IMG/VR virus record: IMGVR_UViG_3300035682_000012
Location: 6,073 to 70,072 of that record
From: a virus
Taxonomy: Duplodnaviria; Heunggongvirae; Uroviricota; Caudoviricetes
Length of the DNA stretch: 64,000 nt
Strand: one strand, 5' to 3'
Shown in pieces: positions 3,529-62,026 of this stretch (position 1 is its first letter; each line of letters opens with the position of its first letter). Below the pieces are notes generated by a model, which was not told the origin of the DNA, did no database searches, and saw only the letters and a program-made list of their open reading frames with translations. The translations under genes were made by a program, and so were the position numbers.

Positions 3529-3553
3529 ATCTTAGGGTTTAATGTTTATACTT

Positions 3554-3563
3554 AAAGATACGA
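3554..3563 (-). promoter_or_regulatory. promoter-like motif AAAGATACGA (TCGTATCTTT on the coding strand)
   Basis: 27 nt upstream of the ATG at 3528; same motif at 25716, 29257, 32276, 45554, 53937, 62027 and variants at 1415, 19131, 19864, 60004. Confidence 0.5.
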
Positions 3564-3583
3564 AATTATTAGGACTTTACCAA

Positions 3584-4360
3584 TTATTTTAGAATATTTG
3601 TTGTAATTAATTGATTATTAACAAGATATGTATATAATTTTTTTGAATATTCTTTATTATGTATGTATCCTGGATGTGCACCATCAATACCATAATCTAT
3701 AAATGGATAAAATTCACCATCAAATCTATTATTATCATTATAATCATTAGTTGCATACCATCCATTCCAAACCCAATTACATTGTTTTGATTCTAAAAAT
3801 AATTTTATTAATTGATGGTTTTTATACCAATTGATAAAATTGTTTGATTTATTTAATAAAGTAAGATGTGCATTATGTTCATTTACACCATTTTCGGTTT
3901 CTTTAAAATACCCCCAACTTTTATGGTGGAATGGTTCTATACCACCTTCATTGGTATAAAATTCTCGTCTATGTGATTCGGTATACATAATTAAAACTAA
4001 ATCAGGTTTTACTAAATCGTAATATGTCATCAAACAACGGGTGATATAATCATTACTTCTACCACCACATCCGAAATTTAAATCAACTCCATTTGGTATT
4101 AATTTACACAATTGATGTGACCATGTTTCGTTATCATTTACACCAACTCCCTCAGTAATAGAACAACCTAATGACATTACCTTAAACCCTTCTTTTTTTA
4201 TACTAGCTCCTCTAAACCCCAATTCATTATAAGTGTAAGTGCAATTTCCTGTAATATCTGAACCCGAATCTTTATATGTTTGATTAACTCTTTCACTTAA
4301 ATTGTTTCTAAACGATGATATTTCAAATCCTTCAGGATTCCAATATTCTAATGGTTTCAT
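3584..4360 (-). CDS. SGNH-like hydrolase, paralog 2
   Basis: 'VMSLGCSITEGVGV' (block I), 'GCGGRSNDY', C-terminal 'DGAHPGYIH' (DxxH). Confidence 0.5.
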   Translation of the reverse strand: MKPLEYWNPEGFEISSFRNNLSERVNQTYKDSGSDITGNCTYTYNELGFRGASIKKEGFKVMSLGCSITEGVGVNDNETWSHQLCKLIPNGVDLNFGCGGRSNDYITRCLMTYYDLVKPDLVLIMYTESHRREFYTNEGGIEPFHHKSWGYFKETENGVNEHNAHLTLLNKSNNFINWYKNHQLIKLFLESKQCNWVWNGWYATNDYNDNNRFDGEFYPFIDYGIDGAHPGYIHNKEYSKKLYTYLVNNQLITTNILK

Positions 4361-4914
4361 ATTAATTTATCTATTTTAAATTCTTTCTCTAATGTTGTAC
4401 AATATATACTCATTTCTCTAATTTCAATTTCCTGAGGTTGTTTTATTAACCAATTTATCATTTTTGCAAGATTTTCAGTATCTAATTTATTTAAACTTTC
4501 AAACCCCGTATGTGTTGATAGTGTAGATGGATATAAATTTATAACTCTAACTTTTTTATTTTTATAATTTGTAATGGTATTTAAAGATACTTTTTTTAAT
4601 TCTTTTTTATTATTTGCATATTCAGGAGACCAATCGGATGAATGATAAACACAACTACTATTCATATTAATAATTGTTTTTGGTAAAAATTTCCATTTGT
4701 CAAAAATTAATTCAAATAATATTGTTTGATAATTTTTTTCATATGCGTTGTTTATAAAAACATCACAATTTTCTAATTGTTCAATAATTTTATTTGGGGT
4801 TTTTATATTAAAACCATTACTTCTACTAAATCCTATAACATCGTATTCTTTTATTAAATTTAAATAAATATCATTTCCAATTCCCTCTGAGTGGCCTGTG
4901 ATTGCAATTTTCAT
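4357..4914 (-). CDS. short-chain dehydrogenase/reductase-like NAD(P)-binding protein
   Basis: N-terminal Rossmann motif 'MKIAITGHSEGIGNDI' (TGxxxGIG); 185 aa. Confidence 0.5.
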   Translation of the reverse strand: MKIAITGHSEGIGNDIYLNLIKEYDVIGFSRSNGFNIKTPNKIIEQLENCDVFINNAYEKNYQTILFELIFDKWKFLPKTIINMNSSCVYHSSDWSPEYANNKKELKKVSLNTITNYKNKKVRVINLYPSTLSTHTGFESLNKLDTENLAKMINWLIKQPQEIEIREMSIYCTTLEKEFKIDKLI

Positions 4915-5432
4915 ATTAGTGACGTTTTTGGGAAATCTAAATTATTAATATGTAAAAATCCAATTATACTCCATCTTTCACCTTTTATTATTTTTTTTAC
5001 TTCATGCATTCTTTGACTAGGAAAAGTATATATGTTACCTGTTTCTTTTGGTAATTGTTCTTTTGGATTATATAAAACAAATTCTCCTCCATCATAATCA
5101 TTGTTTAAACATACTCCCACATTGTGTATTTGTGTTTTATAATATGTGTCGGTGTGTTTTTCAAATTGTTGGCCTTCAATATATTTGTGTATGTATATTT
5201 TATCTAATTCTTTTTTTATTTTTAAATTAGTTTTATTTGTAAAATACATGTGAATTTTATCAAATACCCATTGAGTTTTTTCGTTTCTATTAATTAACCA
5301 CACATCATAGTTTACCTTAAAAGTTTTATCATTATTGGAATATTCATGTTTACCAAAAGAATCTAATTGTTCTAATTCCTTTGATAAATTGATTATGTAA
5401 GTACATTCCTCTTTACTAAATACGATTTTCAT
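4911..5432 (-). CDS. 2OG-Fe(II) oxygenase superfamily protein
   Basis: 'FEKHTDTYY' (HxD) ... 'RMHEVKKIIKGERWSIIGF' (distal His plus 2OG-binding Arg). Confidence 0.55.
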   Translation of the reverse strand: MKIVFSKEECTYIINLSKELEQLDSFGKHEYSNNDKTFKVNYDVWLINRNEKTQWVFDKIHMYFTNKTNLKIKKELDKIYIHKYIEGQQFEKHTDTYYKTQIHNVGVCLNNDYDGGEFVLYNPKEQLPKETGNIYTFPSQRMHEVKKIIKGERWSIIGFLHINNLDFPKTSLI

Positions 5433-6607
5433 TAAATTAAAGTTTTAGGAATTGTTAAATTTTGAACATCACATATTTTATTTAAAAAAAGTTCTTTATA
5501 TATTTGTTTTCTATATTGAAAATCAAAATATAATTTTTGATTAAATTTACATATATCCAAAACCTCTTTACTATTATAAACATTTGATAATTCTAATGCA
5601 CTATCTATAATTTTTTTTATTTTATCTTTACCATTCATTTCATCATAATCCTCGTTGATTACTGAATTAAATGTTTTAAATCCCATATCTCTTAATGTTT
5701 TAAGATAGTGTTTTGATGGCGCATATATAACAAAGGGAACGCCTAAATAAATTGGTTTCCATGTTTTTTCCGTAATATGAATTCTATTGTCATATAACAT
5801 CGTTTCACTTATAATATTAACTTTACTTTGATAATACCAGTTTGGATTTATTATATGTAAATTCTCTTCCTGCATAATTACATCAGTAGTGTATGATACA
5901 TCATCTTCCAATTGAATTGATTTAAAAGCATTTACGTCTATATTGTATTCTAATATCAATTCTTTATTTATATTATTGATGGATACGAAATTCTTTATCC
6001 AAGTAAATCTGGTATCATTTAGTAATCCCCTATTATACAATTCTTCAATAATTTTATATTTTTTATCAGTCATTCTTCTATTTAAACATAAGAATTTTTT
6101 ATTAGGTATTGTTTTATTATTGGTTACAATATCTTTAATATATTTGTTTAGGTTATCATATGTTGCTAAGAAAAAATGTGGAAAAAATAAAGTATTCAAT
6201 ACAAATTTATCATATTTTATTTTGTGAAACCCAACTTTAGAAAAATCATTGTTTATAACAATTAATTTATTAATATCAAATTTATTATTGTTTAATATAT
6301 TAAGAAACTTTGAAAATACTTCATCTTTAAAAAGCTCGGCCTCGCCTCCATCTGCAATAAAATAAAAATTTTTACTTTGTAATTTAGTTAACAATGCTAT
6401 AAATTCAATAGAATGTGTATGTGCTGTGTTTTTATTATGTGGAACCGTCCATTCGTTTTCTAATAAAAAAACTAAAAAATTTAATTTTGTAGTGTCTATG
6501 GTATTGGTATCAATATTATTGAATAAGATACTATTATCTATTTTTTCAATTGAATTTCTAATGTTTGTATTTGGTAGAATATCACTATACCAAAATTGAA
6601 TTTTCAT
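5432..6607 (-). CDS. GT10-family (alpha-1,3-fucosyltransferase-like) glycosyltransferase, paralog
   Basis: 'VNIISETMLYDNRIHITEKTWKPIYLGVPFVIYAP' matches the FucT motif 'FENS..DY[IV]TEK.W....G.VPVV'. Confidence 0.55.
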   Translation of the reverse strand: MKIQFWYSDILPNTNIRNSIEKIDNSILFNNIDTNTIDTTKLNFLVFLLENEWTVPHNKNTAHTHSIEFIALLTKLQSKNFYFIADGGEAELFKDEVFSKFLNILNNNKFDINKLIVINNDFSKVGFHKIKYDKFVLNTLFFPHFFLATYDNLNKYIKDIVTNNKTIPNKKFLCLNRRMTDKKYKIIEELYNRGLLNDTRFTWIKNFVSINNINKELILEYNIDVNAFKSIQLEDDVSYTTDVIMQEENLHIINPNWYYQSKVNIISETMLYDNRIHITEKTWKPIYLGVPFVIYAPSKHYLKTLRDMGFKTFNSVINEDYDEMNGKDKIKKIIDSALELSNVYNSKEVLDICKFNQKLYFDFQYRKQIYKELFLNKICDVQNLTIPKTLI

Positions 6608-10014: not shown

Positions 10015-11505
10015 TTAGCAGGTGAATGAAACACACGTGCTGTAATAACAATACGGGTCATTTTTAGGACACGATTCACATGCGCTATAACAGGAACTAC
10101 ACGCCGCCCCCGGACAAGATACTGAATTATGTTCTATTGAAACGTATGATTGGTTATTGGTTGAACCCGTTGTTTTTGTTAGAAATAACATAGCCTTATC
10201 AACCGAAATAAACCATCCTGAAAATACTCGTTTGGATTGTATATTAGATACTATCGTTTTTCTTACAAACGAAATATTACCATCAGTTGTATCTAATAAT
10301 AATACCACATCACCCGCTATTAAATTAAATAAAGCGTGAAACACAACTATACCTTCTCTTTCTATTAAATATCTTGAACCCATAGTATCTTCCCAAGTAC
10401 TATTATCTTCAAATGTTAGTGTATTTAAAAAAGTTAAAACATTTACTTTTTGTTTATTAGTAACAATATTATTAGAATAAATTGCGGTTGATGCTAATGT
10501 ATTATAGTCTAATGAACCAAATGTATTTGTTATATACCTATCAATGTTAAGTCCATTTTCATTTGGTATCTCTATTGTTTTAATAACGTCACCAATCTGC
10601 AATTCTAATGCGGTTTTAAATGTACCATCGGATAGTTCAACTTCATCGGTATCTACTAATTTAGGTAACCATGGTGTATTTGCCACTGTGTTATAGCTTG
10701 ATTTAAAGTTTGTATCTACTTCAAATGTAGTTGAATTATATGTTACATTATCTAATAACATATTTTGATTTAATTTTGTATATTGTCCTATTTGAATTGA
10801 CTCTAATGTTGCTGGATATAAAATATTTAAACTTCTTAATACAAACGAATGTCCCTCCCATTTTTTAGTAGGGTTATATAGATATTCCATTAAAAAATAA
10901 TCAGATGTTACGTTTTCTAATACTACATCTAATTCTGTTTGATTTGATACTTTATAAAATTTAGGATATTGTTCTTTATCATATCCCGGATATCTAGCTT
11001 TTAAAATAAAATTAGGATGCTCTCCATTATCATTAATATTTGTAATATTATTAACTAATGTGTTTGATTCATTCATATATGCAAATTGTGAACCAAAGGT
11101 TGAATCCTTTATTAAATTCATAAAGTTCACTTTATCTCTACAATATGTATCATCTACTAATGCGGTTGTATCATATGCACTTCTAATAATTAAAGTTTCT
11201 GCATTATCATCAATATATGGAATAGTAATTGCCGATTCACCAACTATATGAAATGCGTATATTATACTATTATTATCACAATACGTTTTTAGTTTTGCAT
11301 CCAATTTTTCTAACTGTCCGATGTAATGAATAGATGTAAAATTATTGGCTTTAATAAACGCGTCAAGTGCTGTTAAATCTAAACAATCGATATCTTCTTC
11401 TACTTTTTCAGGGCCATCCCAACCTACCGCTGTATTGATTTCAATTGGTTTTAAATTACCATCTTTGTCGTACATAAAGTCCGAACCTATTAATACTGTT
11501 CTCAT
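10015..11505 (-). CDS. hypothetical protein with Cys-rich C-terminus (496 aa)
   Basis: Long clean ORF; C-terminal 'SCPGAACSSCYSACESCPKNDPYCYYSTCVSFTC'. Confidence 0.55.
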   Translation of the reverse strand: MRTVLIGSDFMYDKDGNLKPIEINTAVGWDGPEKVEEDIDCLDLTALDAFIKANNFTSIHYIGQLEKLDAKLKTYCDNNSIIYAFHIVGESAITIPYIDDNAETLIIRSAYDTTALVDDTYCRDKVNFMNLIKDSTFGSQFAYMNESNTLVNNITNINDNGEHPNFILKARYPGYDKEQYPKFYKVSNQTELDVVLENVTSDYFLMEYLYNPTKKWEGHSFVLRSLNILYPATLESIQIGQYTKLNQNMLLDNVTYNSTTFEVDTNFKSSYNTVANTPWLPKLVDTDEVELSDGTFKTALELQIGDVIKTIEIPNENGLNIDRYITNTFGSLDYNTLASTAIYSNNIVTNKQKVNVLTFLNTLTFEDNSTWEDTMGSRYLIEREGIVVFHALFNLIAGDVVLLLDTTDGNISFVRKTIVSNIQSKRVFSGWFISVDKAMLFLTKTTGSTNNQSYVSIEHNSVSCPGAACSSCYSACESCPKNDPYCYYSTCVSFTC

Positions 11506-17245: not shown

Positions 17246-17701
17246 CTATTCAAACTCTGCTTCTATTTCCTTAGCTACTGCTCTGCTCTTTTTAGCAGTT
17301 GTTATAGCGTGTTCGTTAGTTCTTAGTAAAATCTCTTGTCCTATGTACCTATTGGCTAGATTCTCGTTTACAAATCTCTTTAGTGTTCTACTCTTATATA
17401 CTACACTATATACGTCTTGCATTAAGTTTTCTGAGTAGTTACTTACTATCTTATATAGTTTTTCGTACTTTTGTCTTATTGTCTCTCTCTTTGTTAGTTT
17501 CTTAGCTATTTGTTTTTTAGCTACCGCCTTTGTTTGTTTCTTAGCTACTACTTTTTTAGCTACAACTTTTTTCTTAGGTACTGCTTTCTTTACTACCTTC
17601 TTAGCTACTACTTTCTTTGCTACTACCTTCTTTTTAGGTGTTGCTTTCTTTGTTACTGACTTAGTTACTTTCTTTGCTTTCATTGTTACTTTCTTACTCA
17701 T
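17246..17701 (-). CDS. histone H1-like lysine-rich DNA-binding protein
   Basis: Reiterated 'KKVVAKKVVAKKVVKKAVPKKKVVAKKVVAKK' in the N-terminal half, helical C-terminal half. Confidence 0.65.
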   Translation of the reverse strand: MSKKVTMKAKKVTKSVTKKATPKKKVVAKKVVAKKVVKKAVPKKKVVAKKVVAKKQTKAVAKKQIAKKLTKRETIRQKYEKLYKIVSNYSENLMQDVYSVVYKSRTLKRFVNENLANRYIGQEILLRTNEHAITTAKKSRAVAKEIEAEFE

Positions 17702-17757: not shown

Positions 17758-18048
17758 TTAGTTAAGTCCGTATTGTGTTAATATGTTATTGCCTTCAGCT
17801 ACCCGCTCTATTTTTTTGTTACGTTGCTTTACTACATCATTCATTGCCTCACCCATTGCCATAGTCATACCCATCATTTCGGGAGTCGATTGAAAGGGAC
17901 CATTTTCATCATTGAATAATTTTTCAAGTGTTTGTATCGTAGCTTCGGCGGTATGTTTAGGTGTCCTGTCACTATGTACTATTGCTACTAATACTGAATA
18001 CAATTGGCTTATTGCATTTTGTTCGTTTGTTAGTTCTCTTTTACTCAT
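17758..18048 (-). CDS. hypothetical protein (96 aa)
   Basis: Minus-strand ORF. Confidence 0.5.
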   Translation of the reverse strand: MSKRELTNEQNAISQLYSVLVAIVHSDRTPKHTAEATIQTLEKLFNDENGPFQSTPEMMGMTMAMGEAMNDVVKQRNKKIERVAEGNNILTQYGLN

Positions 18049-18239
18049 ATGTTATTATTTTATAGTTTTACTCATTGTTTGTAATGCAGTGTATAAGTTT
18101 AATAGCTTATCCAATTGCTCATTGCTCAAATTGTTCATTGCTTTACAATCTGATTCTAATGCTATACCCATTGTTAATACTACCATTTTCAATTGCTTCT
18201 TACTCATTGTAATTGTGATGTCGCTTCTTTTCATGTTGA

Positions 18240-18569
18240 TTATTTATGTGTTGAATTTAATTTATAAGATTTTTGTTGTAAGAACTCAGTCTCTATTGTA
18301 TGTGCTAGTTTCTTACCTTTGACTACATCCAGTATCCATACATTGTAAACATCAGCACCATACTTACGCATGTCCTTATGTAATAACCAAGTACATTCAC
18401 CGGTCCTAGCTTTACTCATATGTTTTTGAAATCTACGATTAGCTGCATATCGGACCGACTTAGTATGATAAAATTGTGATAAACTAGTAACACCTATATA
18501 ACACGCACCAGTGATAGTGTTTTCTATTTCGTATATTAAGTGCTTGCTATCCTTTCTTGTCTTAACCAT
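18240..18569 (-). CDS. GIY-YIG domain protein (109 aa)
   Basis: 'HLIYEIENTITGACYIGVTS' (GIY..YIG) plus downstream Arg/Glu/Asn consistent with the GIY-YIG nuclease core. Confidence 0.6.
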   Translation of the reverse strand: MVKTRKDSKHLIYEIENTITGACYIGVTSLSQFYHTKSVRYAANRRFQKHMSKARTGECTWLLHKDMRKYGADVYNVWILDVVKGKKLAHTIETEFLQQKSYKLNSTHK

Positions 18570-18707
18570 ATTACTTGCTTTTAATTGTTTGAATAATTGT
18601 TTTGATTAATACCGACCCGAATAAACAAAGTGCGGTGATAATGATAAACTCTAAAATTGAAATTGATTGACCCATAGTTGATAAAAATTGATTGATTAAA
18701 AAATTGA

Positions 18708-19112
18708 TTAAGCCCAGTACATTATAAGGATATTCTCGACCTGCTTATTACCTAATCCCATCGCCTTCAATTCACGTTTAACCGATGGTATAAATTTCTT
18801 ATCAATCTGCCCGTAGCTCATAGGGTAGTCAGAAATGATACGAGTAATTTGAGCAGACTCTTTTTTCAACATACTAAAAAACGCACACGCCTTTAAAATT
18901 TCGGGTTTGTTTCTACATACTACCTTATGCATACGACCCATAAAATCCTTAAACATTACTATTGAATTAGGTTTTACCGCGTTACTCATTTTAGTAGCAG
19001 AAAAATTAACATAAACAGGTCTCTCGTTACGAGCAGTACTATAAGCTTTGTCAGTAAATTCATTTGTCATTTTGTTATTCATATATAAAATTTTTGTTAT
19101 GTGAGGAGTCAA
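18708..19112 (-). CDS. hypothetical protein (134 aa)
   Basis: Minus-strand ORF, preceded by repeated intergenic element C. Confidence 0.5.
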   Translation of the reverse strand: MTPHITKILYMNNKMTNEFTDKAYSTARNERPVYVNFSATKMSNAVKPNSIVMFKDFMGRMHKVVCRNKPEILKACAFFSMLKKESAQITRIISDYPMSYGQIDKKFIPSVKRELKAMGLGNKQVENILIMYWA

Positions 19113-19378
19113 ACCTTCGACTCAATACATAAAGATAACCCTTTTTCGTGGACTTTTAACACGTTTTAGGTACTATTTTAAAAATTCTTTATTGACTATC
19201 AACGAGTTACGTCACCAAATATGTGGGACCGGCATAAGTCATTGACGCTGAACCACTTACATATGCTACTGAAAATCAATGACTTATGTATTTCACCCCT
19301 TCATATTAGAAAAAATCTAAATATATTCAATTTTATTAGATAATTTTCATTTCAAAGCGGTGCTATTTTAAATAATAT

Positions 19379-19744
19379 CTAACGAAACAAATCTCGTTTA
19401 CATTTCCATTTCAATTTATCCGCGAGTTCATTGGCTTGAATCTCAAATGGATTTTCATGGTAATCAAATTTTTCATCGTATTCGTAGTATTTCTTTGTAC
19501 TTTGTTTGTAGTGTGCCCATTCATGTATAATAGTATGAATGATATCAATTACAGATTTATGATTGCTTTTATAAACTGAAATTATATTATCTTCGAAATC
19601 ATAATCACCACTACTATCGTCCTCTGCAATCGTTGCCCACTCTAATGCCGGCAAAGTGTGTCTTCTATAATTCAGACCAGCATTACGTTTGCACCAATTC
19701 ATAACTCTTAGAGCATCCTTTCTTTTGAATTGTTTTATTGTCAT
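19379..19744 (-). CDS. HExxH-motif protein (putative zinc metallopeptidase-like)
   Basis: 'IIHTIIHEWAHYKQ'. Confidence 0.45.
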   Translation of the reverse strand: MTIKQFKRKDALRVMNWCKRNAGLNYRRHTLPALEWATIAEDDSSGDYDFEDNIISVYKSNHKSVIDIIHTIIHEWAHYKQSTKKYYEYDEKFDYHENPFEIQANELADKLKWKCKRDLFR

Positions 19745-20346
19745 TTCGGTCAGTTTTAAAATAAACGGGTTAGGTGGTCGCTATTTTGAAGGGGTAAGTA
19801 TAAAGGGAGTAACCAAGCAACCATTTGAGAATAGTATTTATTCTGTCCTAACCCGTTATAACTAAGATACGATAATTTATTTAATCTACCAAATTATATT
19901 GAATCTTTTTGTGTGGGGTATGTGTGTAAAAATAGTCTCTAAAAAATTTTGCGGTCCGACTGAATGGATGGATAAGGTCTAAATGCCGTTGTGATACCTA
20001 TTGTTTCCTTTCCATTCTCTTTGTAACCCTTATTAGTGTTATATTGTGGGGGTTTGTGGGTATAAGTGGGAAATTATTGTACGATGGACCTTATTATTGC
20101 GTTATTTGGTATCAATATACATAAATAGGGATATGATACACTTATACCCGTTATTTGATACCATCTAATAAATGATACTATCTAATTCTTTTACTTCGCT
20201 CCTTATCCCATTGGTAAGTAAAGAAAGCTATGAATAGGGGTGTTATAATCCATTGATACCATTCTACCTTTGTTAATTGTGTAAAGTACAAAAGGAACAT
20301 AATTGTATTTAGTATTGCGAGTGTGAGTGATATGTTTTTATTCATA

Positions 20347-20673
20347 TTAATTATTCATTTGTAGTATTAACTCTATATTGTGTAGAAACATATCTTTCCA
20401 ACGGATTTGTGCAATTGTTAATTGTTTTCTACGTTGTGGCTCTAACATATTGTATAAGGTATAGTAATTATAAGTGTCCATACCTTTACCTTTTACTTTA
20501 TTCCTTTGTAGTATTAAGATTTCATCCCCTTTTGTAAATGTGTTATTAGTAGAATGGATATTGATTTGATAATAGTCTTCGTATTCATATACACCTTCTA
20601 TATTATACCCATCAGTTGTACGATGTAATACCCTTTCACCTTTCAGTTTACTTCTATTGTGTATTGTTAGCAT
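20347..20673 (-). CDS. MLTIKN-family small protein
   Basis: N-terminus MLTIHNRSKLKG; ~105 aa like its paralogs. Confidence 0.6.
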   Translation of the reverse strand: MLTIHNRSKLKGERVLHRTTDGYNIEGVYEYEDYYQINIHSTNNTFTKGDEILILQRNKVKGKGMDTYNYYTLYNMLEPQRRKQLTIAQIRWKDMFLHNIELILQMNN

Positions 20674-20775
20674 ATCCTTTACTTTATTAGTTTTATTATT
20701 TCTATATACACTACTATCATTATTAGTGTTATTATCATTACGCTTATAGTTAGTGTTAGTAGTGACATAGTATTC

Positions 20776-21024
20776 TTATACATTCCTTAGTTCCATACAT
20801 ACACTACATACATTATCTGAATCCTTTTTTATATTATGTATATTACAATATTGGGTTTCTTTACTATGTGTATTATATGTATTGTTATCTGAACTACCGC
20901 TACTATTTCCTTTGCCACTTTTTTCTCTTATCCAATTATACATCCAATCGTTTTGATTACTCATATCGATTATTTTTATATCTTTTTCCGTGTATCTATA
21001 ATTCATATCAATTATTTTTTCCAC
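20776..21024 (-). CDS. hypothetical protein (82 aa), C-terminal CxxC
   Basis: Minus-strand ORF. Confidence 0.45.
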   Translation of the reverse strand: MEKIIDMNYRYTEKDIKIIDMSNQNDWMYNWIREKSGKGNSSGSSDNNTYNTHSKETQYCNIHNIKKDSDNVCSVCMELRNV

Positions 21025-21311
21025 TCACCACTCTTTAATAAGTTTGTTATATAATCCATACTTTGTAATGTAGTAAGGTATACGGGTGCATCATACGTTT
21101 TACCTTTGTATATTACACACGTTGGATGCCATACCATACTACCATTATCTAATTCTAACTTATTCATATTATCTACGTTTGATTTGTTTATTGATTATCT
21201 TATTAAGGTATATAGTTGATACCCTACTTGCCTTACCCCTTTGCCTTATACCCCATATTAAATTATTGATTAAGAATATACTCTTTATACTATGTGCTCT
21301 ATTCATATTAA

Positions 21312-21641
21312 TTACATTTCAATTATTGTTTTCAATTCATACATCATACTATCCATCGTATCAATATTTTCTATTCTTATTATACATCTATTCAATACAC
21401 CTATTACGATATCAATAGAAGTTATCATATATTCATACTCACTCGCTCCATCCGGCCTTTCACGTCCTATCTTCATTGTCAATTCATTATTATGATTTTT
21501 TGAGAATGCATCGCTGGTCCCTATAATTATTTCATATGCCGATTTGTTTTCCCTTACATCTAATATCTTCCATGATTCGGTCATAGAATGTGTCATAATA
21601 TATTGACCTTTTAATTTCTTATAGTTTTGTATTGTTAGCAT
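21312..21641 (-). CDS. MLTIKN-family small protein (true start at internal MLTIQNYKKLKG)
   Basis: The ORF-table extension overlaps the next paralog; internal ATG gives a ~110 aa family-sized protein. Confidence 0.55.
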   Translation of the reverse strand: MLTIQNYKKLKGQYIMTHSMTESWKILDVRENKSAYEIIIGTSDAFSKNHNNELTMKIGRERPDGASEYEYMITSIDIVIGVLNRCIIRIENIDTMDSMMYELKTIIEM

Positions 21642-21646
21642 AAGGT

Positions 21647-21925
21647 TTATATTATATTTGCCATAAAATGTGTCATAGTTAGTAAAAACTTTTTGCAATC
21701 CAATACATCCTTTTTTTGTACCCACATTTGCTGCCCTTCATATGTCATACAATAGTAATCCTTATATGGATGATTGATTTGTGGTGGGTGTATACGGCTT
21801 AGAGTGACCTTATTTAGTGGGTATCCGTTATCAATCCAAAATACATACGCCCAATCAATTTCTTGCACTCTAACATTTACCTTTGTATAATTTCTTATCC
21901 TATCTATGTTATGTATTGTCAACAT
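21647..21925 (-). CDS. MLTIKN-family small protein
   Basis: MLTIHNIDRIRNY. Confidence 0.6.
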   Translation of the reverse strand: MLTIHNIDRIRNYTKVNVRVQEIDWAYVFWIDNGYPLNKVTLSRIHPPQINHPYKDYYCMTYEGQQMWVQKKDVLDCKKFLLTMTHFMANII

Positions 21926-22246
21926 TTATATTGCGTTTAATATTTGCTCAATTTCATTCCTAAATTTCTCGGGTGTGTTTAACCTTTCTTTTATATAATG
22001 AAATAGTAATCCATCAATTTCAATTCCATAAACATAACAATCTTTATTTTGGCTGTTATCAAACACTATACGTCCCTTTTTATGTAGGGTTATATTTTTT
22101 CTTACCAAATGTGGCGGTGATACCTCTCTTATTGAAAAATGTGTAACCTCACTCGTAGTATTATCCCAACCTTTGAAATACCATCCTTTGCCTTTTACAT
22201 TTAATGAATACCCATTTATTTTATGGATGTTTTTAAGTATTAGCAT
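21926..22246 (-). CDS. MLTIKN-family small protein
   Basis: MLILKNIHKINGY. Confidence 0.6.
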   Translation of the reverse strand: MLILKNIHKINGYSLNVKGKGWYFKGWDNTTSEVTHFSIREVSPPHLVRKNITLHKKGRIVFDNSQNKDCYVYGIEIDGLLFHYIKERLNTPEKFRNEIEQILNAI

Positions 22247-22550
22247 CTTCGTCTCTTTTTATATTTGCAATTATACAATTCATATAATAGATTAGCCCTA
22301 CGGGTGATATATCAATAGGGCGTATTAGGACCTCATATAATTTACCATTACGATTTGTTTTCATTCTATACATGCCCATTACTTCATCCTTATTCCTATC
22401 AAATGTAACGTACCATTGTGTTGATTTGTAATGGCCTACATTAGTTAGTACAAATTGATATTCGGTAGGGGCTTCAATTGCTTCATACACTTCCCACTTA
22501 TCCGTTATTTGTTTGCCGTTAATTTTTTCTATGTTTCTTATCTTTAGCAT
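22233..22550 (-). CDS. MLTIKN-family small protein
   Basis: MLKIRNIEKINGK. Confidence 0.6.
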   Translation of the reverse strand: MLKIRNIEKINGKQITDKWEVYEAIEAPTEYQFVLTNVGHYKSTQWYVTFDRNKDEVMGMYRMKTNRNGKLYEVLIRPIDISPVGLIYYMNCIIANIKRDEDANT

Positions 22551-22551
22551 A

Positions 22552-22851
22552 TTATTTCATTATCATTTCAACCGCTCTTATAAAAGTTTGTTTATTACTT
22601 ATTTGTTCTACCTTTAATAACATACTATTAATAGGAGTAGCTTCATTCCATATTATATAACCCTTATCCGTTTTAAATCTATTCAATACAATTTTAATAT
22701 CACTATACGTTTTATTTATATGTCTCAAATGAATATGATATTGTTCGTTACCCTCTTGATTCCAACTCCATGTGTTAAGTACATAATAAACTCCCGTACC
22801 ACCATCAATTCTTTGATTGATTAGTGTAAACATATTTTCTATTGTTAGCAT
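22552..22851 (-). CDS. MLTIKN-family small protein (start at internal MLTIENMF)
   Basis: Family N-terminus at an internal ATG; the conserved 'attgttagcat' on the + strand marks the start. Confidence 0.55.
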   Translation of the reverse strand: MLTIENMFTLINQRIDGGTGVYYVLNTWSWNQEGNEQYHIHLRHINKTYSDIKIVLNRFKTDKGYIIWNEATPINSMLLKVEQISNKQTFIRAVEMIMK

Positions 22852-22922
22852 TGTATATATAGTTTTTACTATCAAAAAAATTTAGGTAACGACACTTTTT
22901 TCCCCCAACCCCCGCCCGCCGT

Positions 22923-23099
22923 TATTTACTTATTCTTTTGTTTATTAAATTCTTCTATTAAACTTTCTATCATATCATCCCCTAAATGAATATTATGTAA
23001 GAATTTAATCATAGAATATTGTGCTAAATACATTGATGTGGATACTTTTTTATCCCCGTCTACTAATTCTATTCTAATTTGTGCTTCTGTATTTTCCAT
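22923..23099 (-). CDS. small hypothetical protein (58 aa, MENTEAQIRIELVDG...)
   Basis: ORF just below the table cutoff, filling the gap between two family members. Confidence 0.35.
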
Positions 23100-23110
23100 A
23101 TTATTTTGTT

Positions 23111-23434
23111 TTATTTACTGAAACTATCTAATTGTCCGCCTAACATACCAGGAAACATTTTGAAATCTAATAAACCTTTTGTTAGTGTTACACAATTACT
23201 ATTTTGGTCATTATACATTCGCCATTCGTTTGCTGTACTATCGAATTCATTATATCTTAATATTTTAAATTTTATATACTTTGGATGCTTTACTCCGAAT
23301 GATTTACCATAATCAAATCTAACTTTGATATTATAATCATATTTTAGTTCCTCTATACTCATTACTACCCAATGTGCATGCACTGTCTCTATTTTAGTTC
23401 CTTCTATCTTTTGTATATTACCTATTTTTAGCAT
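23111..23434 (-). CDS. MLTIKN-family small protein
   Basis: MLKIGNIQKIEGT. Confidence 0.6.
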   Translation of the reverse strand: MLKIGNIQKIEGTKIETVHAHWVVMSIEELKYDYNIKVRFDYGKSFGVKHPKYIKFKILRYNEFDSTANEWRMYNDQNSNCVTLTKGLLDFKMFPGMLGGQLDSFSK

Positions 23435-23435
23435 A

Positions 23436-23747
23436 CTATTCGTTTAACATTTTATCAATTGCTTGCTTTATAAAGTACGGGCTTATTTGATGTAAACTTA
23501 ACCACCTATTTATTTTAGTTTGGTCAAAATCTTTATACAATCTATAAACAGGTTCGTTTCTACCGCTTACATATTGGCTCTCTCTATTCAAATAAAATAT
23601 ATTTTGTATTTTACCATTTATAGAAACAGCAAATCCATATACATCTTTATAAGTATCAACTGCTTCAGTTGCCTTAATTATATGCCATTTGTAAGGTAGT
23701 GGTGATGTTATGTTTATTATCTTATCTATGTTTTGTATTTTTAGCAT
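23436..23747 (-). CDS. MLTIKN-family small protein
   Basis: MLKIQNIDKIINI. Confidence 0.6.
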   Translation of the reverse strand: MLKIQNIDKIINITSPLPYKWHIIKATEAVDTYKDVYGFAVSINGKIQNIFYLNRESQYVSGRNEPVYRLYKDFDQTKINRWLSLHQISPYFIKQAIDKMLNE

Positions 23748-23758
23748 ATCATTTTTAT

Positions 23759-24073
23759 TTAACCTAATGCAACTAATCTTAACTTGTCAATGAATATATC
23801 CATATTACCAATTTCTTTTGGTGTTATGTAGTATATGTGTCCCGTGCTACTATGTAATTTATAATCATAGTTACCATCACGTCCCACCTCATCCCTATCT
23901 AATGTGACCGTTATTGCCCATTTTCTATTAGTTAATTCAAATATGTATTTATGGTTTTTTGTAGTGAACATTGCTCCATCCATATCAAATTTTTCCTCAA
24001 CCCTTTCTACATAAAAGTTTTTCTTACCGAGTGTTTTATGCTGTATCTTATTTATGTTTTGTATTCGTAGCAT
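23759..24073 (-). CDS. MLTIKN-family small protein
   Basis: MLRIQNINKIQHK. Confidence 0.6.
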   Translation of the reverse strand: MLRIQNINKIQHKTLGKKNFYVERVEEKFDMDGAMFTTKNHKYIFELTNRKWAITVTLDRDEVGRDGNYDYKLHSSTGHIYYITPKEIGNMDIFIDKLRLVALG

Positions 24074-24074
24074 A

Positions 24075-24317
24075 CTATTTATTTAAAAACCATTTTCCAA
24101 ATTTGAATATCATTTTGAAAATACCAATTATTAAAATCATAGGTATTATCACCGGCCAAAATATAGAGAATGCAGTAAATGCTTGTTCATTACTATCCCA
24201 GTCATCCCATTCCATTTTACGATTATCATAATCAAATCCAATTTTCACTCCAAAGTATTTGAAAAATGTTAGTGTCAATAAAAATCCTATTATGTATATT
24301 GTTATTATTGTTATCAT
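24075..24317 (-). CDS. small membrane protein (80 aa, 2 TM)
   Basis: Hydrophobic segments IITIYIIGFLLTLTFF and WPVIIPMILIIGIF. Confidence 0.5.
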   Translation of the reverse strand: MITIITIYIIGFLLTLTFFKYFGVKIGFDYDNRKMEWDDWDSNEQAFTAFSIFWPVIIPMILIIGIFKMIFKFGKWFLNK

Positions 24318-24526
24318 ATGTTATTCCATTTATTTGCGAAGTTATTATCATTTTTAAGTAAATAATCAAACTCTTCTATTTTTAATATTCTAAATTTTCC
24401 GGTAGAGTCTTCCACTAACCAATTATCATAAAGCCAATCATCTAAATCACCTACATCTGATTTTCTCCATAGTTCGTCCATTCCGTTACCATAGTTATCA
24501 TATAGTGTTTCTAATGCTGTTTTCAT
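24314..24526 (-). CDS. hypothetical protein (70 aa)
   Basis: Minus-strand ORF, ATGA overlap with the next gene. Confidence 0.5.
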   Translation of the reverse strand: MKTALETLYDNYGNGMDELWRKSDVGDLDDWLYDNWLVEDSTGKFRILKIEEFDYLLKNDNNFANKWNNI

Positions 24527-24654
24527 TTTATTTCTTCGATTTTGATGCTTTAATCAATTTTGATGCTTTAATCAATAGTATTGTTATCCATACTACTGCC
24601 GTCAATACACATGCTATTTCTACTATCAATGCTATCGTTGCTATTGTTTTCATT

Positions 24655-25524
24655 CTATATAAATTTTATTATTGCTAAATCTTTTTGTTTTGCTTCTACC
24701 ATTATGTCCACTATGTTGCCGTATGTTTCAGGAATCCTTTCAATGAAATCACTATGTGCCTGTGGCTTACTACCCATCTTACTTTCAGAATAGTGAACTG
24801 CCGGTGTTATACCTTTCGGCCATGTACTCATAGCTAACTCTAATGCATCTTGCTCACTTAAATTTCCGGTATTGAATGTGTGATGATGATAATCAAATAC
24901 AATAGGTATCTTTATTGCATTGTGAATATACATTAAGTCTTTAACTGAATACATACTCGCCTTATCGTCATTCTCAATTGTTAATCTGCTCTTTACTGAA
25001 TCAGATAGTAGTTTAAAATTATCTATGAACCTATCCATCGCACTTTGCTTATCACCATACACTCCGTTACAATGTATATTGATTTTATTGTAAGGTGTTT
25101 TAGATAATCCTATCGCATCCATCAACCTACCATGCACTTCTAAATCATTTATTGTATTTTGTACTACCGCTTCTTTTGGTGAAACTAATACATTAAAAGG
25201 ACCTGGATGAAATGATAATCTTTGTCCATACTTTGTTGCTTTATCACCACATCTTTTTAGTATGATTGCAATTTCATTCCAATCTTTTAATTGTTCAAAT
25301 TGATATTCAGTAGCCCATGGCATCATATCGGAACTCATACGATACATCTTAATACCATTCTGCTCATTCCATTCTATAATCCGTTCTAAGTCCGCTACAT
25401 TTTGTATAACACAATCCGATACATAATCCAGTCCCTTTTCTAAAAAAGTTCTCTTAATCATTGTTCGGTTTGTAGTGACCTTTTTACCCAAACTCATATT
25501 AATACATGCATATCCTAAATTCAT
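24655..25524 (-). CDS. uvdE: UV DNA damage endonuclease (UvdE/Uve1 family)
   Basis: 'TIENDDK', 'VFDYHHH', 'MVEAKQKDLAI' and the overall TIM-barrel UVDE layout, co-linear with bacterial UvdE. Confidence 0.88.
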   Translation of the reverse strand: MNLGYACINMSLGKKVTTNRTMIKRTFLEKGLDYVSDCVIQNVADLERIIEWNEQNGIKMYRMSSDMMPWATEYQFEQLKDWNEIAIILKRCGDKATKYGQRLSFHPGPFNVLVSPKEAVVQNTINDLEVHGRLMDAIGLSKTPYNKINIHCNGVYGDKQSAMDRFIDNFKLLSDSVKSRLTIENDDKASMYSVKDLMYIHNAIKIPIVFDYHHHTFNTGNLSEQDALELAMSTWPKGITPAVHYSESKMGSKPQAHSDFIERIPETYGNIVDIMVEAKQKDLAIIKFI

Positions 25525-25694
25525 ACTTTCTTTGTTTTTCGTTTGAGTAATTCGGTTTCTATTTTAGATATTCTACCTTCCATAGAATGTATTTTAAATC
25601 TATGTATGAAATTACCTAATATTGTTTTAGGTATTCTAGCTTGCTCTGCAATCAATGATGCTTTCATTGCTCTTAGAATTTTTCTTAGTGCCAT
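25521..25694 (-). CDS. small protein (57 aa, MALRKILRAMKASLIAEQARIPK...)
   Basis: The ORF-table start is TTG-derived; the internal ATG at 25694 lies 24 nt downstream of the promoter-like motif. Confidence 0.45.
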   Translation of the reverse strand: MALRKILRAMKASLIAEQARIPKTILGNFIHRFKIHSMEGRISKIETELLKRKTKKV

Positions 25695-25715
25695 ACTATG
25701 AATTAGTTTATACTT

Positions 25716-25725
25716 AAAGATACGA
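25716..25725 (-). promoter_or_regulatory. promoter-like motif AAAGATACGA
   Basis: 24 nt upstream of the ATG at 25694. Confidence 0.5.
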
Positions 25726-25796
25726 AATATATATGAAACTATCAAAAAAAAATTAGGTTAAACGACCTTCGCTCAACCCCCGCCCCTTCCCGCTGA

Positions 25797-26180
25797 TTAT
25801 ATTGTTTGCATACAAATTATAATCTTATCCGTTGTGTCAAACTCATCTTTATTTAACCATAATGTGTGACCATTATATTCCAGTATATAACATCCATTTT
25901 CGGTTTGCTTTCTATGTAATAAGAAAGTTTCTATTTGGCTCATTTCTTTATTAGCCAATGTAAATTCATAATGATATTGATTCTCGTTTGCACCAATTAC
26001 TTTTAACCAATCACTATATTCTTGTCCGATTAATTGTTGCGGATTTTTTATTGTTAGCATATTATTTTGTTTTATCATTCGGTCATCAAACACACTCATA
26101 TCACATACATCGCACCAGTCAGTATCATCATAGTTAATTGGATTGTTGCATCTAATACAATCATGTACATTCATATCCAT
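25797..26180 (-). CDS. zinc-ribbon N-terminal extension fused to an MLTIKN-family domain
   Basis: 'CIRCNN ... CDVCDMS' (2x CxxC) in frame upstream of 'MLTIKNPQQLIG'. Confidence 0.5.
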   Translation of the reverse strand: MDMNVHDCIRCNNPINYDDTDWCDVCDMSVFDDRMIKQNNMLTIKNPQQLIGQEYSDWLKVIGANENQYHYEFTLANKEMSQIETFLLHRKQTENGCYILEYNGHTLWLNKDEFDTTDKIIICMQTI

Positions 26181-26500
26181 TTCATTTTTGATATATCTTG
26201 AATAATTGCATTCATATCAGTTGCTACCCAATTCCAATTCTTTATTAATACCTTATCTATATAACGAGTTTCTGTTGTCCTATAAACGTAACTATTAATT
26301 ATACCCCACATACCATACTTACCCTCAGGATTAGCTTCTCTTGCTAAATAGATAGAACACAATGGTATGCAATCCTTATCCCTTATTCTAAATTCATATA
26401 CCAATTTTTTTTCCTCTACATCATATATGGTGCAACGTTCAAACAGGAAAAAATCACTTTCTGTCATTGGGTTACCTATATAATTCTTTATTGTTAGCAT
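26171..26500 (-). CDS. MLTIKN-family small protein
   Basis: MLTIKNYIGNP. Confidence 0.6.
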   Translation of the reverse strand: MLTIKNYIGNPMTESDFFLFERCTIYDVEEKKLVYEFRIRDKDCIPLCSIYLAREANPEGKYGMWGIINSYVYRTTETRYIDKVLIKNWNWVATDMNAIIQDISKMKWI

Positions 26501-26501
26501 A

Positions 26502-26798
26502 CTATTTAATTATAAGTTCGGTAATTCGTTTTATCATTTTCCGCTTTGTATCGATTTTATTCTTTGCTAATAAACTTCGTTGAACATTTCCATTCTTATC
26601 CCAATACCATAATTCATATAATGCCGTGTCACCTCGTCCAATTGGTGTCCGCTCTAAACTCATTTCAAATCCAATGTTATGGTTATTAGCCACTACTATT
26701 CTATATTGAGTTTCAGTTTCCTCAACATTATGGATAAATACAGTCGTATCTCTAATCTTTGTATTTACAATTTCAATATAATTCTTAATTGTTAGCAT
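26502..26798 (-). CDS. MLTIKN-family small protein (start at internal MLTIKNYIEI)
   Basis: Internal ATG gives the family N-terminus. Confidence 0.55.
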   Translation of the reverse strand: MLTIKNYIEIVNTKIRDTTVFIHNVEETETQYRIVVANNHNIGFEMSLERTPIGRGDTALYELWYWDKNGNVQRSLLAKNKIDTKRKMIKRITELIIK

Positions 26799-27085
26799 AT
26801 CAATCCGTTTATACACCTAACTACATATCGCATATTTTTTAGTTGGTCTTTTGTTATTGCCATATACTCCGTACCATATGTTAGTATGAACAATCCAATA
26901 GGTGTAGGTTTGCGGCTTATAGTACAATATATAAAATAGTTATAACCACGATTATTTATACTGATATGATAATGATTGAGTGAACTTCTAATTTTATTTA
27001 TAGACCAACCATTCCCTACATCTGATAATACAATGTTCTCACTATTTTTTATCGTTATCCGATTTTGTTTCAATGTTGGCTGCAT
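26792..27085 (-). CDS. divergent MLTIKN-family member (..NRITIKNSENI..)
   Basis: Family-like length and 'ITIKN' near the N-terminus. Confidence 0.45.
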   Translation of the reverse strand: MQPTLKQNRITIKNSENIVLSDVGNGWSINKIRSSLNHYHISINNRGYNYFIYCTISRKPTPIGLFILTYGTEYMAITKDQLKNMRYVVRCINGLIC

Positions 27086-29039: not shown

Positions 29040-29250
29040 TTCGTTTTGTTTTATACAAAGATACTAAATGAATTATCAATATTGTACTATTCACCACTAT
29101 AACCGGATTATCATTTCGTATAATTCCGTATGACATCCATAATACGCAACCAATTGAGTTTAATATTCTCAATAGTTTCATATTCTTAGCCATCATTGAT
29201 ATTAATGTAACTATTGTAGCCACATATCCTAGTATTTCTATTGTATTCAT
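29020..29250 (-). CDS. small membrane protein (start at internal MNTIEILGYVATIV)
   Basis: 2-3 hydrophobic helices; ATG at 29250 immediately downstream of the AAAGATACGA motif. Confidence 0.5.
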   Translation of the reverse strand: MNTIEILGYVATIVTLISMMAKNMKLLRILNSIGCVLWMSYGIIRNDNPVIVVNSTILIIHLVSLYKTKRNESMGM

Positions 29251-29284
29251 ATACTTAAAGATACGAAAAATTACCCATTTTACC

Positions 29285-29313
29285 AAAGAAAAAGGGTACT
29301 TTTTATGTACCCC
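29285..29313 (-). terminator. rho-independent terminator
   Basis: Minus-strand GGGUAC-AUAAAAA-GUACCC followed by UUUUUCUUU, just downstream of the stop of 29380..30177. Confidence 0.5.
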
Positions 29314-36512: not shown

Positions 36513-36568
36513 AATAACGATTTCCTATAAGTATTAATATGTTCAAAAAAATGATTAGCCATTCGTTG
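36508..36568. repeat. 61 bp direct repeat (copy 1), spanning the end and junction of SGNH paralogs
   Basis: 'ttcataataacgatttcctataagtattaatatGttcaaaaaaatgattagccattcgttg', identical except for one base to 37271..37331. Confidence 0.7.
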
Positions 36569-37282: not shown

Positions 37283-37331
37283 AATAACGATTTCCTATAA
37301 GTATTAATATATTCAAAAAAATGATTAGCCA
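37271..37331. repeat. 61 bp direct repeat (copy 2)
   Basis: See copy 1; encodes the shared C-terminus '...MANHFFE[HY]INTYRKSLL' plus the gene junction. Confidence 0.7.
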
Positions 37332-45503: not shown

Positions 45504-45530
45504 ATATTATGATTTTTTATTATATGAGTA

Positions 45531-46007: not shown

Positions 46008-46008
46008 A

Positions 46009-53676: not shown

Positions 53677-53729
53677 ATATTTGCTTTTAATTGTTATAGA
53701 AAAAAAATGTGGGATAAACCCACAATTTT

Positions 53730-61979: not shown

Positions 61980-62026
61980 AACTGAATTTTTAATGTTTAT
62001 TGTTTAATTATTGTTTGATATATCAT

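Follow-up and report, generated by a model that had tools for sequence, protein, structure and literature searches.

The 64,000-nucleotide stretch of viral DNA analysed here (positions 6,073 to 70,072 of IMG/VR record IMGVR_UViG_3300035682_000012; below, the window) contains three spacers, near 19.1, 45.5 and 53.9 kb, that share a long conserved element, with copies called A, B and C. We consider it likely that the three spacers hold copies of one transcription-control cassette, composed of promoter, operator and leader, which is also a recombination module and represents a new version of a familiar phage element. The readings offered in a preliminary description, namely small RNA genes, long structured 5' leaders or insertions resembling miniature inverted-repeat transposable elements (MITEs), fail because there is no Rfam match, no RNA fold common to the copies and no set of terminal inverted repeats.

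In the proposed mechanism, a symmetric and probably dimeric protein would bind one to three operators upstream of the promoter, and host RNA polymerase would start transcription about 5 nt after the −7 box. The operator protein would modulate that start, by activation or by repression. The leader may act at the 5' end as a stabiliser or as a protein-binding signal, and the roughly 130 nt of near-identical sequence could provide a recombination substrate that shuffles small open reading frames (ORFs), as the PeSL (promoter-early stem-loop) cassettes do in T4-like phages.

The three copies are real. The pattern GTAACTNNTTGATNNTCAATAAA, with up to three mismatches, matches the window only at 19188-19210, 45611-45633 and 54004-54026, each time on the minus strand, where 0.09 matches are expected. 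A 28-nt leader pattern matches 45533-45560 and 53916-53943 and misses copy A, which has more than three differences in this part (GAAGGTTTG instead of the GAGAGAATG found in B and C). Local pairwise alignment gave 121 columns at 77% for A/B, 123 columns at 80% for A/C and 146 columns at 82% for B/C. The corresponding scores of 75, 80 and 111 compare with a shuffle mean of 22-23 (sd 3, maximum 36) and with 52 for the best-scoring pair among the other intergenic spacers. Masking of the core TCGTATCTTTATGTAT leaves scores of 40-54 for the upstream parts, with shuffle maxima of 33-39, and of 25-39 for the downstream parts, with shuffle maxima of 20-28; the downstream A/B value of 28 is only equal to its shuffle maximum. 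Because the core-masked parts score above shuffles, the similarity is not limited to the 10-bp promoter motif and reaches far beyond it, as the preliminary description had proposed. The span conserved in all three copies measures about 131-141 nt (19080-19210, 45501-45633 and 53886-54026).

The blocks shared by the copies are distributed differently from what was first described. A string given as common to A and B, cattctctc..tatattg, is a 41-nt string common to the 45.5-kb and 53.9-kb copies, of which the 19.1-kb copy has only gactcaatacataaagata. The ccaaagt..cta block, attributed to the same pair, also belongs to the 45.5-kb and 53.9-kb copies, whereas ttgactatcaa.gagttac is shared by those at 19.1 and 53.9 kb and reads ttgagaatcaactagttacgt at 45.5 kb. 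The spacers concerned (296, 180 and 290 nt) are indeed among the largest in the window, but they are not the largest, since spacer 19745-20346 exceeds them.

Homologous cassettes are found in related phages. An 18-mer covering box and leader retrieved 13 IMG/VR loci, all of which (13/13) share the whole cassette, and a degenerate 24-mer retrieved 77 metagenome loci, again all homologous and mostly from lakes. Window, viral and metagenome loci together comprise 94 occurrences with 77 distinct sequences. The homologues occupy positions orthologous to those of A, B or C in genomes that are syntenic, with 75-97% identity, and the copies and about 90 homologues are all co-oriented with the downstream gene and at a fixed distance from it. 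In 185,579 reference genomes (GTDB, 596 Gb) a degenerate 18-mer gave 34 matches, none with flanking similarity; these matches calibrate the chance level and show the cassette to be confined to phage contigs.

Read in the gene direction, on the minus strand, the cassette contains one or more 25-bp operators, an A/T-rich spacer, a weak, TTG-like −33 element, 19 nt, the −7 box, the leader, an A-rich stretch and the ATG. All three copies stand directly upstream of minus-strand ORFs, and the distance from −7 box to ATG is 55-57 nt in the window copies and in nearly all homologues. The conserved start of the leader is followed by about 25 A-rich nucleotides, without a Shine-Dalgarno (SD) sequence, that run into the start codon (often ATGAATA). 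In copy A, the proximal operator (19185-19209; minus-strand reading TAACTCGTTGATAGTCAATAAAGAA) agrees with 13 of 16 consensus positions; its centre, 19197, precedes the first T of the −7 box by 60 bp, which corresponds to about −72 from the predicted transcription start site (TSS), and the block is common to all three copies and to homologous cassettes. Two distal, degenerate operator-like sites in inverted orientation (19235-19259, 13/16; 19262-19286, 12/16) jointly form a perfect 13-bp inverted repeat, CATAAGTCATTGA/TCAATGACTTATG, which is kept in A orthologues (L002, L004, L139 and others). The 25-nt A/T-rich spacer between operator and −33 (19160-19184) contains a AAAATAGT block; homologous cassettes with the operator 10 bp nearer to the −7 box lack it. 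The core promoter (19130-19159) has TTA at −33 (19157-19159), a 19-nt spacer and the −7 box TATCTTTA (19130-19137). The predicted leader (19083-19125, TSS near 19125) has a hairpin, GAGTC-N8-GACTC (19106-19123), and an A-rich stretch before the ATG (19080-19082) of gene A (18708-19082, 124 aa, minus strand).

Copy B has a single operator (45608-45632; minus-strand reading TAACTAGTTGATTCTCAATAAAAAC; 12/16), centred at 45620, which is 60 bp upstream of the −7 box or at about −72. Its promoter region (45553-45607, minus strand) consists of an A/T-rich spacer (45583-45607), TTG at −33 (45580-45582), 19 nt and the same −7 box TATCTTTA (45553-45560). The predicted leader (45504-45548, TSS near 45548) has a hairpin, GAGTT-N8-GACTA (45529-45546), with four of five pairs, and ends at the ATG (45501-45503) of gene B, an ORFan of 112 aa (45165-45503, minus strand) followed by a DNA ligase gene (44038-45147).

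Copy C has two perfect, directly adjoining operators (54071-54095 and 54096-54120, 16/16 each), centred 140 and 165 bp upstream of the −7 box. A degenerate proximal operator (54001-54025; minus-strand reading TAACTCATTGATAGTCAGTCAAAAA; 12/16), homologous to the proximal sites of A and B, has its centre 70 bp upstream of the box, at about −82. The promoter region (53936-54000, minus strand) has a spacer of 35 nt, 10 nt more than in A and B (53966-54000), TTC at −33 (53963-53965), 19 nt and the −7 box (53936-53943). The predicted leader (53889-53931, TSS near 53931) keeps the 5' arm and loop of the hairpin with a non-complementary 3' arm (3/5 pairs) and reaches the ATG at 53886-53888. Gene C is a 52-aa ORFan (53730-53888, minus strand) followed by an intrinsic terminator (53708-53724); both fall mostly in a variable module (53679-53881). 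The conserved GP88-family gene further downstream (52828-53676) has no promoter of its own.

That the copies carry a promoter, as stated in the preliminary description, is borne out by the −7 box TATCTTTA in all three. Bacteroidetes sigma-A (sigma-ABfr) promoters have the elements TTTG and TAHHTTTG (TAnnTTTG) at −33/−7, with the box at −12..−5 (PMC6847099, PMC9723704). The box TATCTTTA, which all three copies have in common with the window's general promoters, agrees with TAHHTTTG at 7 of 8 positions, fitting T-12 A-11 H H T-8 T-7 T-6. The general promoters occur in other spacers and have the form TTTGGTA-N14-TCGTATCTTTA(A/T)GTAT, which is TTTG, 20 nt and TATCTTTA; the motif TCGTATCTTTA, which includes the −7 box of the cassettes, has 12 matches in the window against 2.75 expected. 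At 19-20 nt before the −7 box, (T)TTGG or ATTGCC is present in the general promoters and in most homologues of the cassette. Translation signals are similar to those of Bacteroidetes as well. The sequences that precede the 121 ORFs show no excess of SD-like 4-mers (9%, background 11%), and their A content is highest at −10..−13; the same two traits have been reported for Flavobacterium (PMC6847099). The predicted mRNAs of the window thus resemble those made from Bacteroidetes sigma-A promoters in having leaders, no SD and A-rich initiation regions.

The cassette promoter appears to be of a Bacteroidetes-style host type, with its activity and its start about 5 nt after the box predicted from the placement of the box. 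The cassettes differ from host promoters in that they conserve both a TCG immediately before the box and some 20 nt of sequence following it, which hints at phage-specific recognition. In the general class, a promoter at 29245-29290 (minus strand; TTTGGTA-N14-TCGTATCTTTAAGTATATG) has its first ATG only 5 nt after the −7 box and a terminator hairpin directly upstream, an arrangement that suggests a leaderless or nearly leaderless mRNA. A further general-class promoter near 19874 is separated from gene 19382-19744 by a leader of about 125 nt (19745-19868, minus strand) with a long-range helix, ACGGGTTAGG...CCTAACCCGT (z = −4.1; 0 of 200 shuffles fold as well). This leader may act as a regulator in cis. 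Rfam offered no credible match for it, the sole one being SCARNA21 (opposite strand, E = 0.23).

The operator is a 25-bp dyad, TAAC-N3-TTGA-N3-TCAA-N3-GTTA, for which 160 unique strong sites gathered from all fetched loci gave the fuller consensus TAACTCATTGATWATCAATGAGTTA. The window has 8 occurrences of its core, TTGA-N3-TCAA, where 2.4 are expected, and sites that agree at 13 or more of 16 positions number 7, three of them perfect, against 1.4 expected. All seven are located just upstream of promoters: those of A and C, that of an AAA-ATPase gene at 62 kb and one at 3.5 kb. The 12/16 sites (B proximal, A distal at 19262, C proximal at 54001) were recognised by homology. Watson-Crick complementarity at the variable symmetric positions is at or below the expectation from column composition (0.49 vs 0.57, 0.30 vs 0.35 and 0.48 vs 0.54), so a hairpin or cruciform is not under selection. 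The palindrome most economically reads as the binding site of a symmetric protein, probably a dimer.

Homologous cassettes have 0-4 sites each, most often two (28 of 67), with centre-to-centre distances of 25-28, 36 or 50 bp. The proximal site of the cassette family is located 50 bp (23 cassettes), 60 bp (17) or 70 bp (4) from T-12, corresponding to about −62, −72 and −82 from the predicted TSS, with A and B in the 60-bp class and C in the 70-bp class. Spacing has therefore been altered in whole helical turns, in 10-bp steps. A fourth operator-bearing promoter exists outside the three copies (62026-62139, minus strand), where sites at 62115-62139 (16/16) and 62066-62090 (15/16) precede TTTGGTA-N14-TCGTATCTTTA (62026-62056), a promoter of the general class that belongs to the AAA_5 ATPase gene at 60747-61979. 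The region 60747-63930 pairs an ORF of 575-591 aa with this AAA_5 (MoxR/CbbQ-like) ATPase, with the operators in between, and the arrangement is kept in the divergent contigs L075, L080 and L113. At 3.5 kb, a single operator-like site (3604-3628, 13/16) stands just upstream of a general-class promoter (3553-3583, minus strand).

In the leader, the first 20 nucleotides, TGTATTG(A/G)GT(C/T)GAGAGA, are almost invariant among 36 distinct homologues. A 5-bp helix, G(A/G)GT(C/T)...GAC(T/C)C, begins 2-3 nt after the predicted start and is paired in 81% of cells, compared with 38-54% in slid controls. One of its pairs is A-U in 20 sequences and G-C in 12, with one mismatched combination, and 0 of 500 shuffles reach the observed score. 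Since orthologues of a single gene can have either state, the change has probably happened more than once. These data weakly suggest that in most family members a small 5'-terminal hairpin is superimposed on a signal in the sequence itself. The hairpin could stabilise the mRNA or bind a protein in the manner of a nut element, and the sequence signal could serve promoter escape or protein recognition.

Several observations count against a host-read, operator-controlled promoter with a hairpin leader. The −7 box has A at −5, where the Bacteroidetes −7 element (T-12 A-11 T-8 T-7 T-6 G-5) has a near-invariant G (PMC6847099), and the −33 element is TTA in copy A and TTC in copy C instead of the TTG seen in copy B. 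Because of these deviations and a marginal Sigma70_r2 match in the operator-rich contig L091, a phage-encoded sigma factor could act in place of the host sigma. The 10-bp steps occur among homologous cassettes and are not independent events, and general-class promoters carry their operator at 45, 54-56, 69 or 76-77 bp, so that no single helical face is common to all. The quality of the −33 element is equal in promoters with and without operators, which makes activation and repression inseparable. A Pfam search of the 121 window ORFs showed no DNA-binding family (helix-turn-helix (HTH), HU, IHF or MarR-like) among the 25 listed of 36 families. Support for the hairpin comes from one covarying pair, its 3' arm is lost in copy C and its orthologues with 5' arm and loop kept, and RNAalifold found no consensus structure in 36 distinct leaders, in an ungapped alignment that leaves sequences with 1-nt deletions out of register.

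The marginal Sigma70_r2 match in L091 is an ORF at 10182-10865 (23.9 bits against a cutoff of 24). In L026, a 289-aa ORF (4638-5507, minus strand) looks sigma-like by eye and has no Pfam match. The TCGTATCTTTA promoters might be read with a phage factor.

A structured RNA, whether a long regulatory leader, a riboswitch-like element or an independent small RNA gene, would account for the unusual length of the spacers, and it could draw on the perfect 13-bp inverted repeat of copy A, the covarying pair in the leader hairpin and a fold z-score of −4.4 in copy C. The z-scores of A and B are −1.9 and −1.7, no better than shuffles, and the low value of C results from two abutting palindromes that pair together. 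Folding and covariance analysis revealed no structure common to the three copies and no covariation in the palindrome. About two thirds of the conserved length, including the palindromic protein-binding site, lies upstream of the −7 box, which leaves a leader of only about 43-45 nt with a hairpin of at most 5 bp that copy C lacks. Rfam gave no match at the gathering cutoff in the whole window, nor at E ≤ 1 in the copy A region (18900-19500), and no terminator follows the leader: there is no terminator-like hairpin adjoining B or C and no G+C-rich terminator stem in any copy. We regard a structured RNA as very unlikely.

The leader hairpin, with its invariant purine loop GAGAGAAU, might alternatively be a nut/boxB-like or put-like antitermination signal directed at the many intrinsic terminators of the region. 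Its loop and 5' arm are more conserved than its 3' arm, as is typical of protein-bound hairpins rather than of simple stabilisers, and cassette C leads into a 52-aa ORF, the terminator at 53708-53724 and then a promoterless conserved gene. Related contigs also have other 5'-proximal hairpins that start with GGGTTGAG. The resemblance to the lambda nut boxB and HK022 put sites lies in a short hairpin with a conserved purine-rich loop immediately after particular phage promoters; the difference is that the hairpin here is weakly supported and missing in copy C. It is precisely copy C and its orthologues, which face the terminator, that lack it. Furthermore, a single pair covaries, no N-like or Q-like protein was identified, and the conservation of +1..+20 is explained equally well by RNA polymerase contacts during promoter escape. 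Antitermination therefore seems to us improbable as the role of the hairpin.

The operators themselves could be symmetric, high-affinity sites for an architectural protein of the HU/IHF type, from host or phage, that bends the upstream DNA around RNA polymerase, much as IHF or Fis bound upstream enhances strong promoters. Among 81 low-GC sites, numbered outward from the dyad, position 0 is A/T in 93%, +1 is A in 68%, +2..+5 are TCAA in 95-100% and +10..+12 are TTA in 99-100%. Each half, W A T C A A N4 T T A, fits all nine specified positions of the IHF consensus WATCAANNNNTTR (PMC8942017, PMC10380432). The sites, which an A/T-rich stretch separates from the promoter, are found at about −62, −72 and −82 and at more distal positions, and the motif occurs in phages of two promoter types, which a universal protein family explains more easily. 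Such a layout resembles that of rrnB P1. IHF, however, is a heterodimer that acts on asymmetric sites, whereas the site here is symmetric, and canonical IHF is not typical of Bacteroidetes. The symmetric placement of TCAA would put the presumed kinks about 7 bp apart, while in crystal structures of IHF/HU complexes they are 9 bp apart. Position ±9 (G/C) and the N3 positions are conserved as well, beyond what the IHF consensus needs. HU, IHF and TF1, used as phmmer queries on the window and about 200 related loci translated in six frames, returned nothing. We judge an HU/IHF-type protein unlikely as the binder.

Other known systems offer partial parallels. Class I CRP sites (−61.5/−71.5/−82.5), Fis at rrnB P1 and IHF at lambda pL and Mu Pe have upstream dyad or bending-protein sites behind an A/T-rich stretch, and the cassette-family centres at about −62, −72 and −82, from the predicted TSS and in 10-bp steps, are similarly placed. 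The window palindrome differs from CRP, FNR and Fis sites in its 25-bp length and four 4-bp blocks, and general-class promoters have it at other distances. The FabT site ANTTTGATTATCAAATT, bound by a winged-helix dimer of the MarR family, shares the TTGA-N3-TCAA palindromic core form, an analogy only; the MexR operator GTTGA-N5-TCAAC is a second MarR-family parallel. Flanking contacts by such a protein would explain the outer TAAC and GTTA blocks, but no MarR-like gene was found in the Pfam scan of the window. A literature search for the motif strings gave only unrelated results in addition to the FabT operator TTGATTATCAA.

A role of the palindromes as replication-origin or partition (centromere-like) sites appears extremely improbable. 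Their clustering would fit, as would a 15/16 site adjoining a RepL-like gene of crAssphage and the tandem DnaA-box sequences (TGTGGATAA) between operator pair and promoter in L026, L031 and L097. The sites in the window, on the other hand, are distributed among five promoter regions that together extend across 60 kb, and each precedes its promoter by a short, defined distance. There is no iteron or AT-rich unwinding arrangement in the window and only one degenerate DnaA-box-like stretch (62085-62110), and one crAssphage site is within chance for 50,697 genomes. In the small-phage contig L026, the two tandem boxes (reverse complement of TTATCCACA) occupy 6460-6485, and L031 and L097 have a similar pair. 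The crAssphage palindrome, TAACTTATTGATAATCAATGTATTA, lies in the spacer adjoining the RepL-like replication gene of crAssphage ZA (MK238400.1, L244; about 96.7 kb) and may be there by chance; palindromes in Lak megaphages are weaker (13/16).

The palindrome also has a wide distribution. A single-site pattern retrieved at least 119 viral loci, 33 of which have two or more strong sites, far above chance. This wider family includes unrelated contigs of 34-49% G+C (L035, L068, L077 and L091), with pairs exactly 50 bp apart every few hundred bases. In L035 the operator pairs precede A-tracts and sigma70-like −35/−10 hexamers, and in L091 a promoter-like TTGACA stands upstream of a pair; the operator is therefore common to unrelated phages with two promoter types. 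A tentative extension, which we find doubtful, is that TAACTCATTGATWATCAATGAGTTA is read by a regulator or a symmetric HU/IHF-like protein common to many uncultivated phages (28-49% GC), constituting an early-promoter control code across host phyla of which the window, with its nut-like leader, would be one lineage's version. Searches for the binder gave little. Pfam found nothing in the ORFs around the L026 operator array and, in other operator-rich contigs, only the marginal Sigma70_r2 and a weak Crp-type HTH match that fell below the cutoff. When the ORFs of 23 operator-rich loci were clustered by BLASTP, no shared family emerged. BLAST of a GC-rich operator pair against cultured phages gave no match, and the window pair only sub-significant single palindromes in crAssphage and Lak phages. 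The 25-bp operator could be used as bait for the regulator, and the identity of its binder could explain regulation in a large slice of viral dark matter.

Gene A is the gene most often found downstream of the cassette, with 296 homologues. As a candidate autoregulator it yielded no Pfam domain, an AlphaFold model with a predicted local distance difference test (pLDDT) score of 62 and, with Foldseek against the PDB, nothing below E = 0.6. Genes A, B and C could be placed in neither a Pfam nor a PHROG family. The leader contains a further in-frame ATG upstream (MTPHIVKNYNM...), which was rejected as the true start because many homologues lack it.

Comparison of related phages reveals that small ORFs are gained, lost and moved exactly at the cassettes, by recombination in the leader/start-codon region. 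Cassette B lies directly on the ligase gene in L006 and L011, which lack gene B; an extra ORF stands between cassette B and gene B in L007, and L137 and L187 likewise have another ORF there, while in L198 gene B is upstream of the cassette. Cassette C lies directly on the GP88-family gene in L010, L140 and L171, where the module 53679-53881 is absent; the 52-aa ORF and terminator are inserted in the window and in L001, L143, L149 and L155. The junctions of these indels are short start-codon repeats (ATATGAATA, AATATG), and ATATGAATA flanks the gene C module on both sides. The repeats fall inside the conserved cassette end, and ATGAATA opens many of the genes downstream. Since the indels comprise neighbouring ORFs rather than the cassette and have microhomology junctions, they point to recombination rather than transposition.

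A MITE-like or autonomously mobile insertion that happens to carry a promoter might be expected from the multiple copies of about 130 nt, their intergenic position, their palindromes and the variable gene content next to them in related phages. This explanation is highly improbable. No terminal inverted repeats or flanking target duplications are common to the copies, whose only internal palindromes are the operators. Orientation and box-to-ATG distance are fixed, the homologues occupy orthologous positions, and the element is absent from the reference genomes; the indels, as noted, are neighbouring ORFs with microhomology junctions.

The closest known counterpart of such a recombination-prone promoter cassette is the PeSL of T4-like phages, at which ORFans are inserted, deleted or replaced through crossovers between promoter and ATG (Arbiol et al. 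2010, PMC2839356; Comeau et al. 2014, PMC4122927). Both are repeated composites of about 100 nt built on a strong early promoter of the host type, and both precede small ORFans where the genome of a large phage is plastic. ORFan insertion, deletion and replacement at the cassettes occur here too. The two differ in several respects. A PeSL pairs its promoter with a terminator stem-loop, whereas A, B and C have no adjacent terminator; the window cassettes have upstream dyad operators and a conserved transcribed leader; their promoter is of the Bacteroidetes −33/−7 type and not sigma70; and there are three copies per 64 kb compared with about 50 per genome. Elsewhere in the window, regions 25700-25796 and 22852-22925 have in common a G-rich terminator-like hairpin (ggcgggggttg...), a T-run and TTGATAGT. 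The hairpin at 25.7 kb runs into a general-class promoter, a terminator-plus-promoter layout that is nearer to the classical PeSL than A, B and C are, and the promoter at 29.3 kb also directly follows a terminator. Recombination-prone regulatory cassettes, described as PeSLs of T4-like coliphages and vibriophages, would with copies A, B and C extend to phages with Bacteroidetes-type signals. The promoter consensus and conserved leader given here may also be useful as genetic-tool parts in flavobacteria.

The window has 29% G+C, and all its substantial ORFs are on the minus strand with very short spacers between them. Recognisable proteins, of phage-like or auxiliary kind, include an ATP-dependent DNA ligase, a GP88-family protein, a GIY-YIG homing-endonuclease-like ORF, the AAA_5 ATPase, UvdE and 2OG-Fe(II) oxygenases; a search for tRNA and tmRNA genes found none. 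No close relative in culture emerged: two DNA probes and two of three proteins tried were unmatched among 50,697 deposited phage genomes, including the DNA of 18000-25500 and a 615-aa ORF. The ligase has its best match in a 595-kb uncultured phage, followed by T4-like phages of alphaproteobacteria, and homologues of gene A occur on metagenomic contigs of up to 252 kb (related contigs of about 250 kb). The lack of DNA matches, the affinities of the ligase and the long contigs with gene A homologues indicate a large uncultured phage as the source of the window. Judged from its promoter and translation-start signals, which also underlie the predicted start sites, this AT-rich phage most likely infects a member of the Bacteroidetes. 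The cassettes provide a testable map of transcription organisation in an abundant, uncultured group of large freshwater phages.

Other repeats and genes in the window deserve mention. A 61-nt direct repeat (36508-36568 and 37278-37338, 98% identity) marks the beginnings of two neighbouring genes, about 240-257 aa in length (35781-36512/36509-37282 and 37279-37950), that are apparently tandem paralogues, and the relative L011 aligns across the repeat point as if it had one copy fewer. The gene at 17246-17701 encodes a repetitive protein rich in Lys, Ala and Val with a weak match to the histone H1-like HC2 family (E = 6e-4, below the Pfam cutoff), which may be a DNA-condensing protein of the phage. 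About ten small ORFs in 20656-26812 and 45979-46021 resemble one another at their conserved 5' ends, with ...TATGCTAACAAT... on the minus strand and MLT... at the N-terminus (repeat families D3 and D6-D8), and look like paralogous small early genes or genes with conserved start regions.

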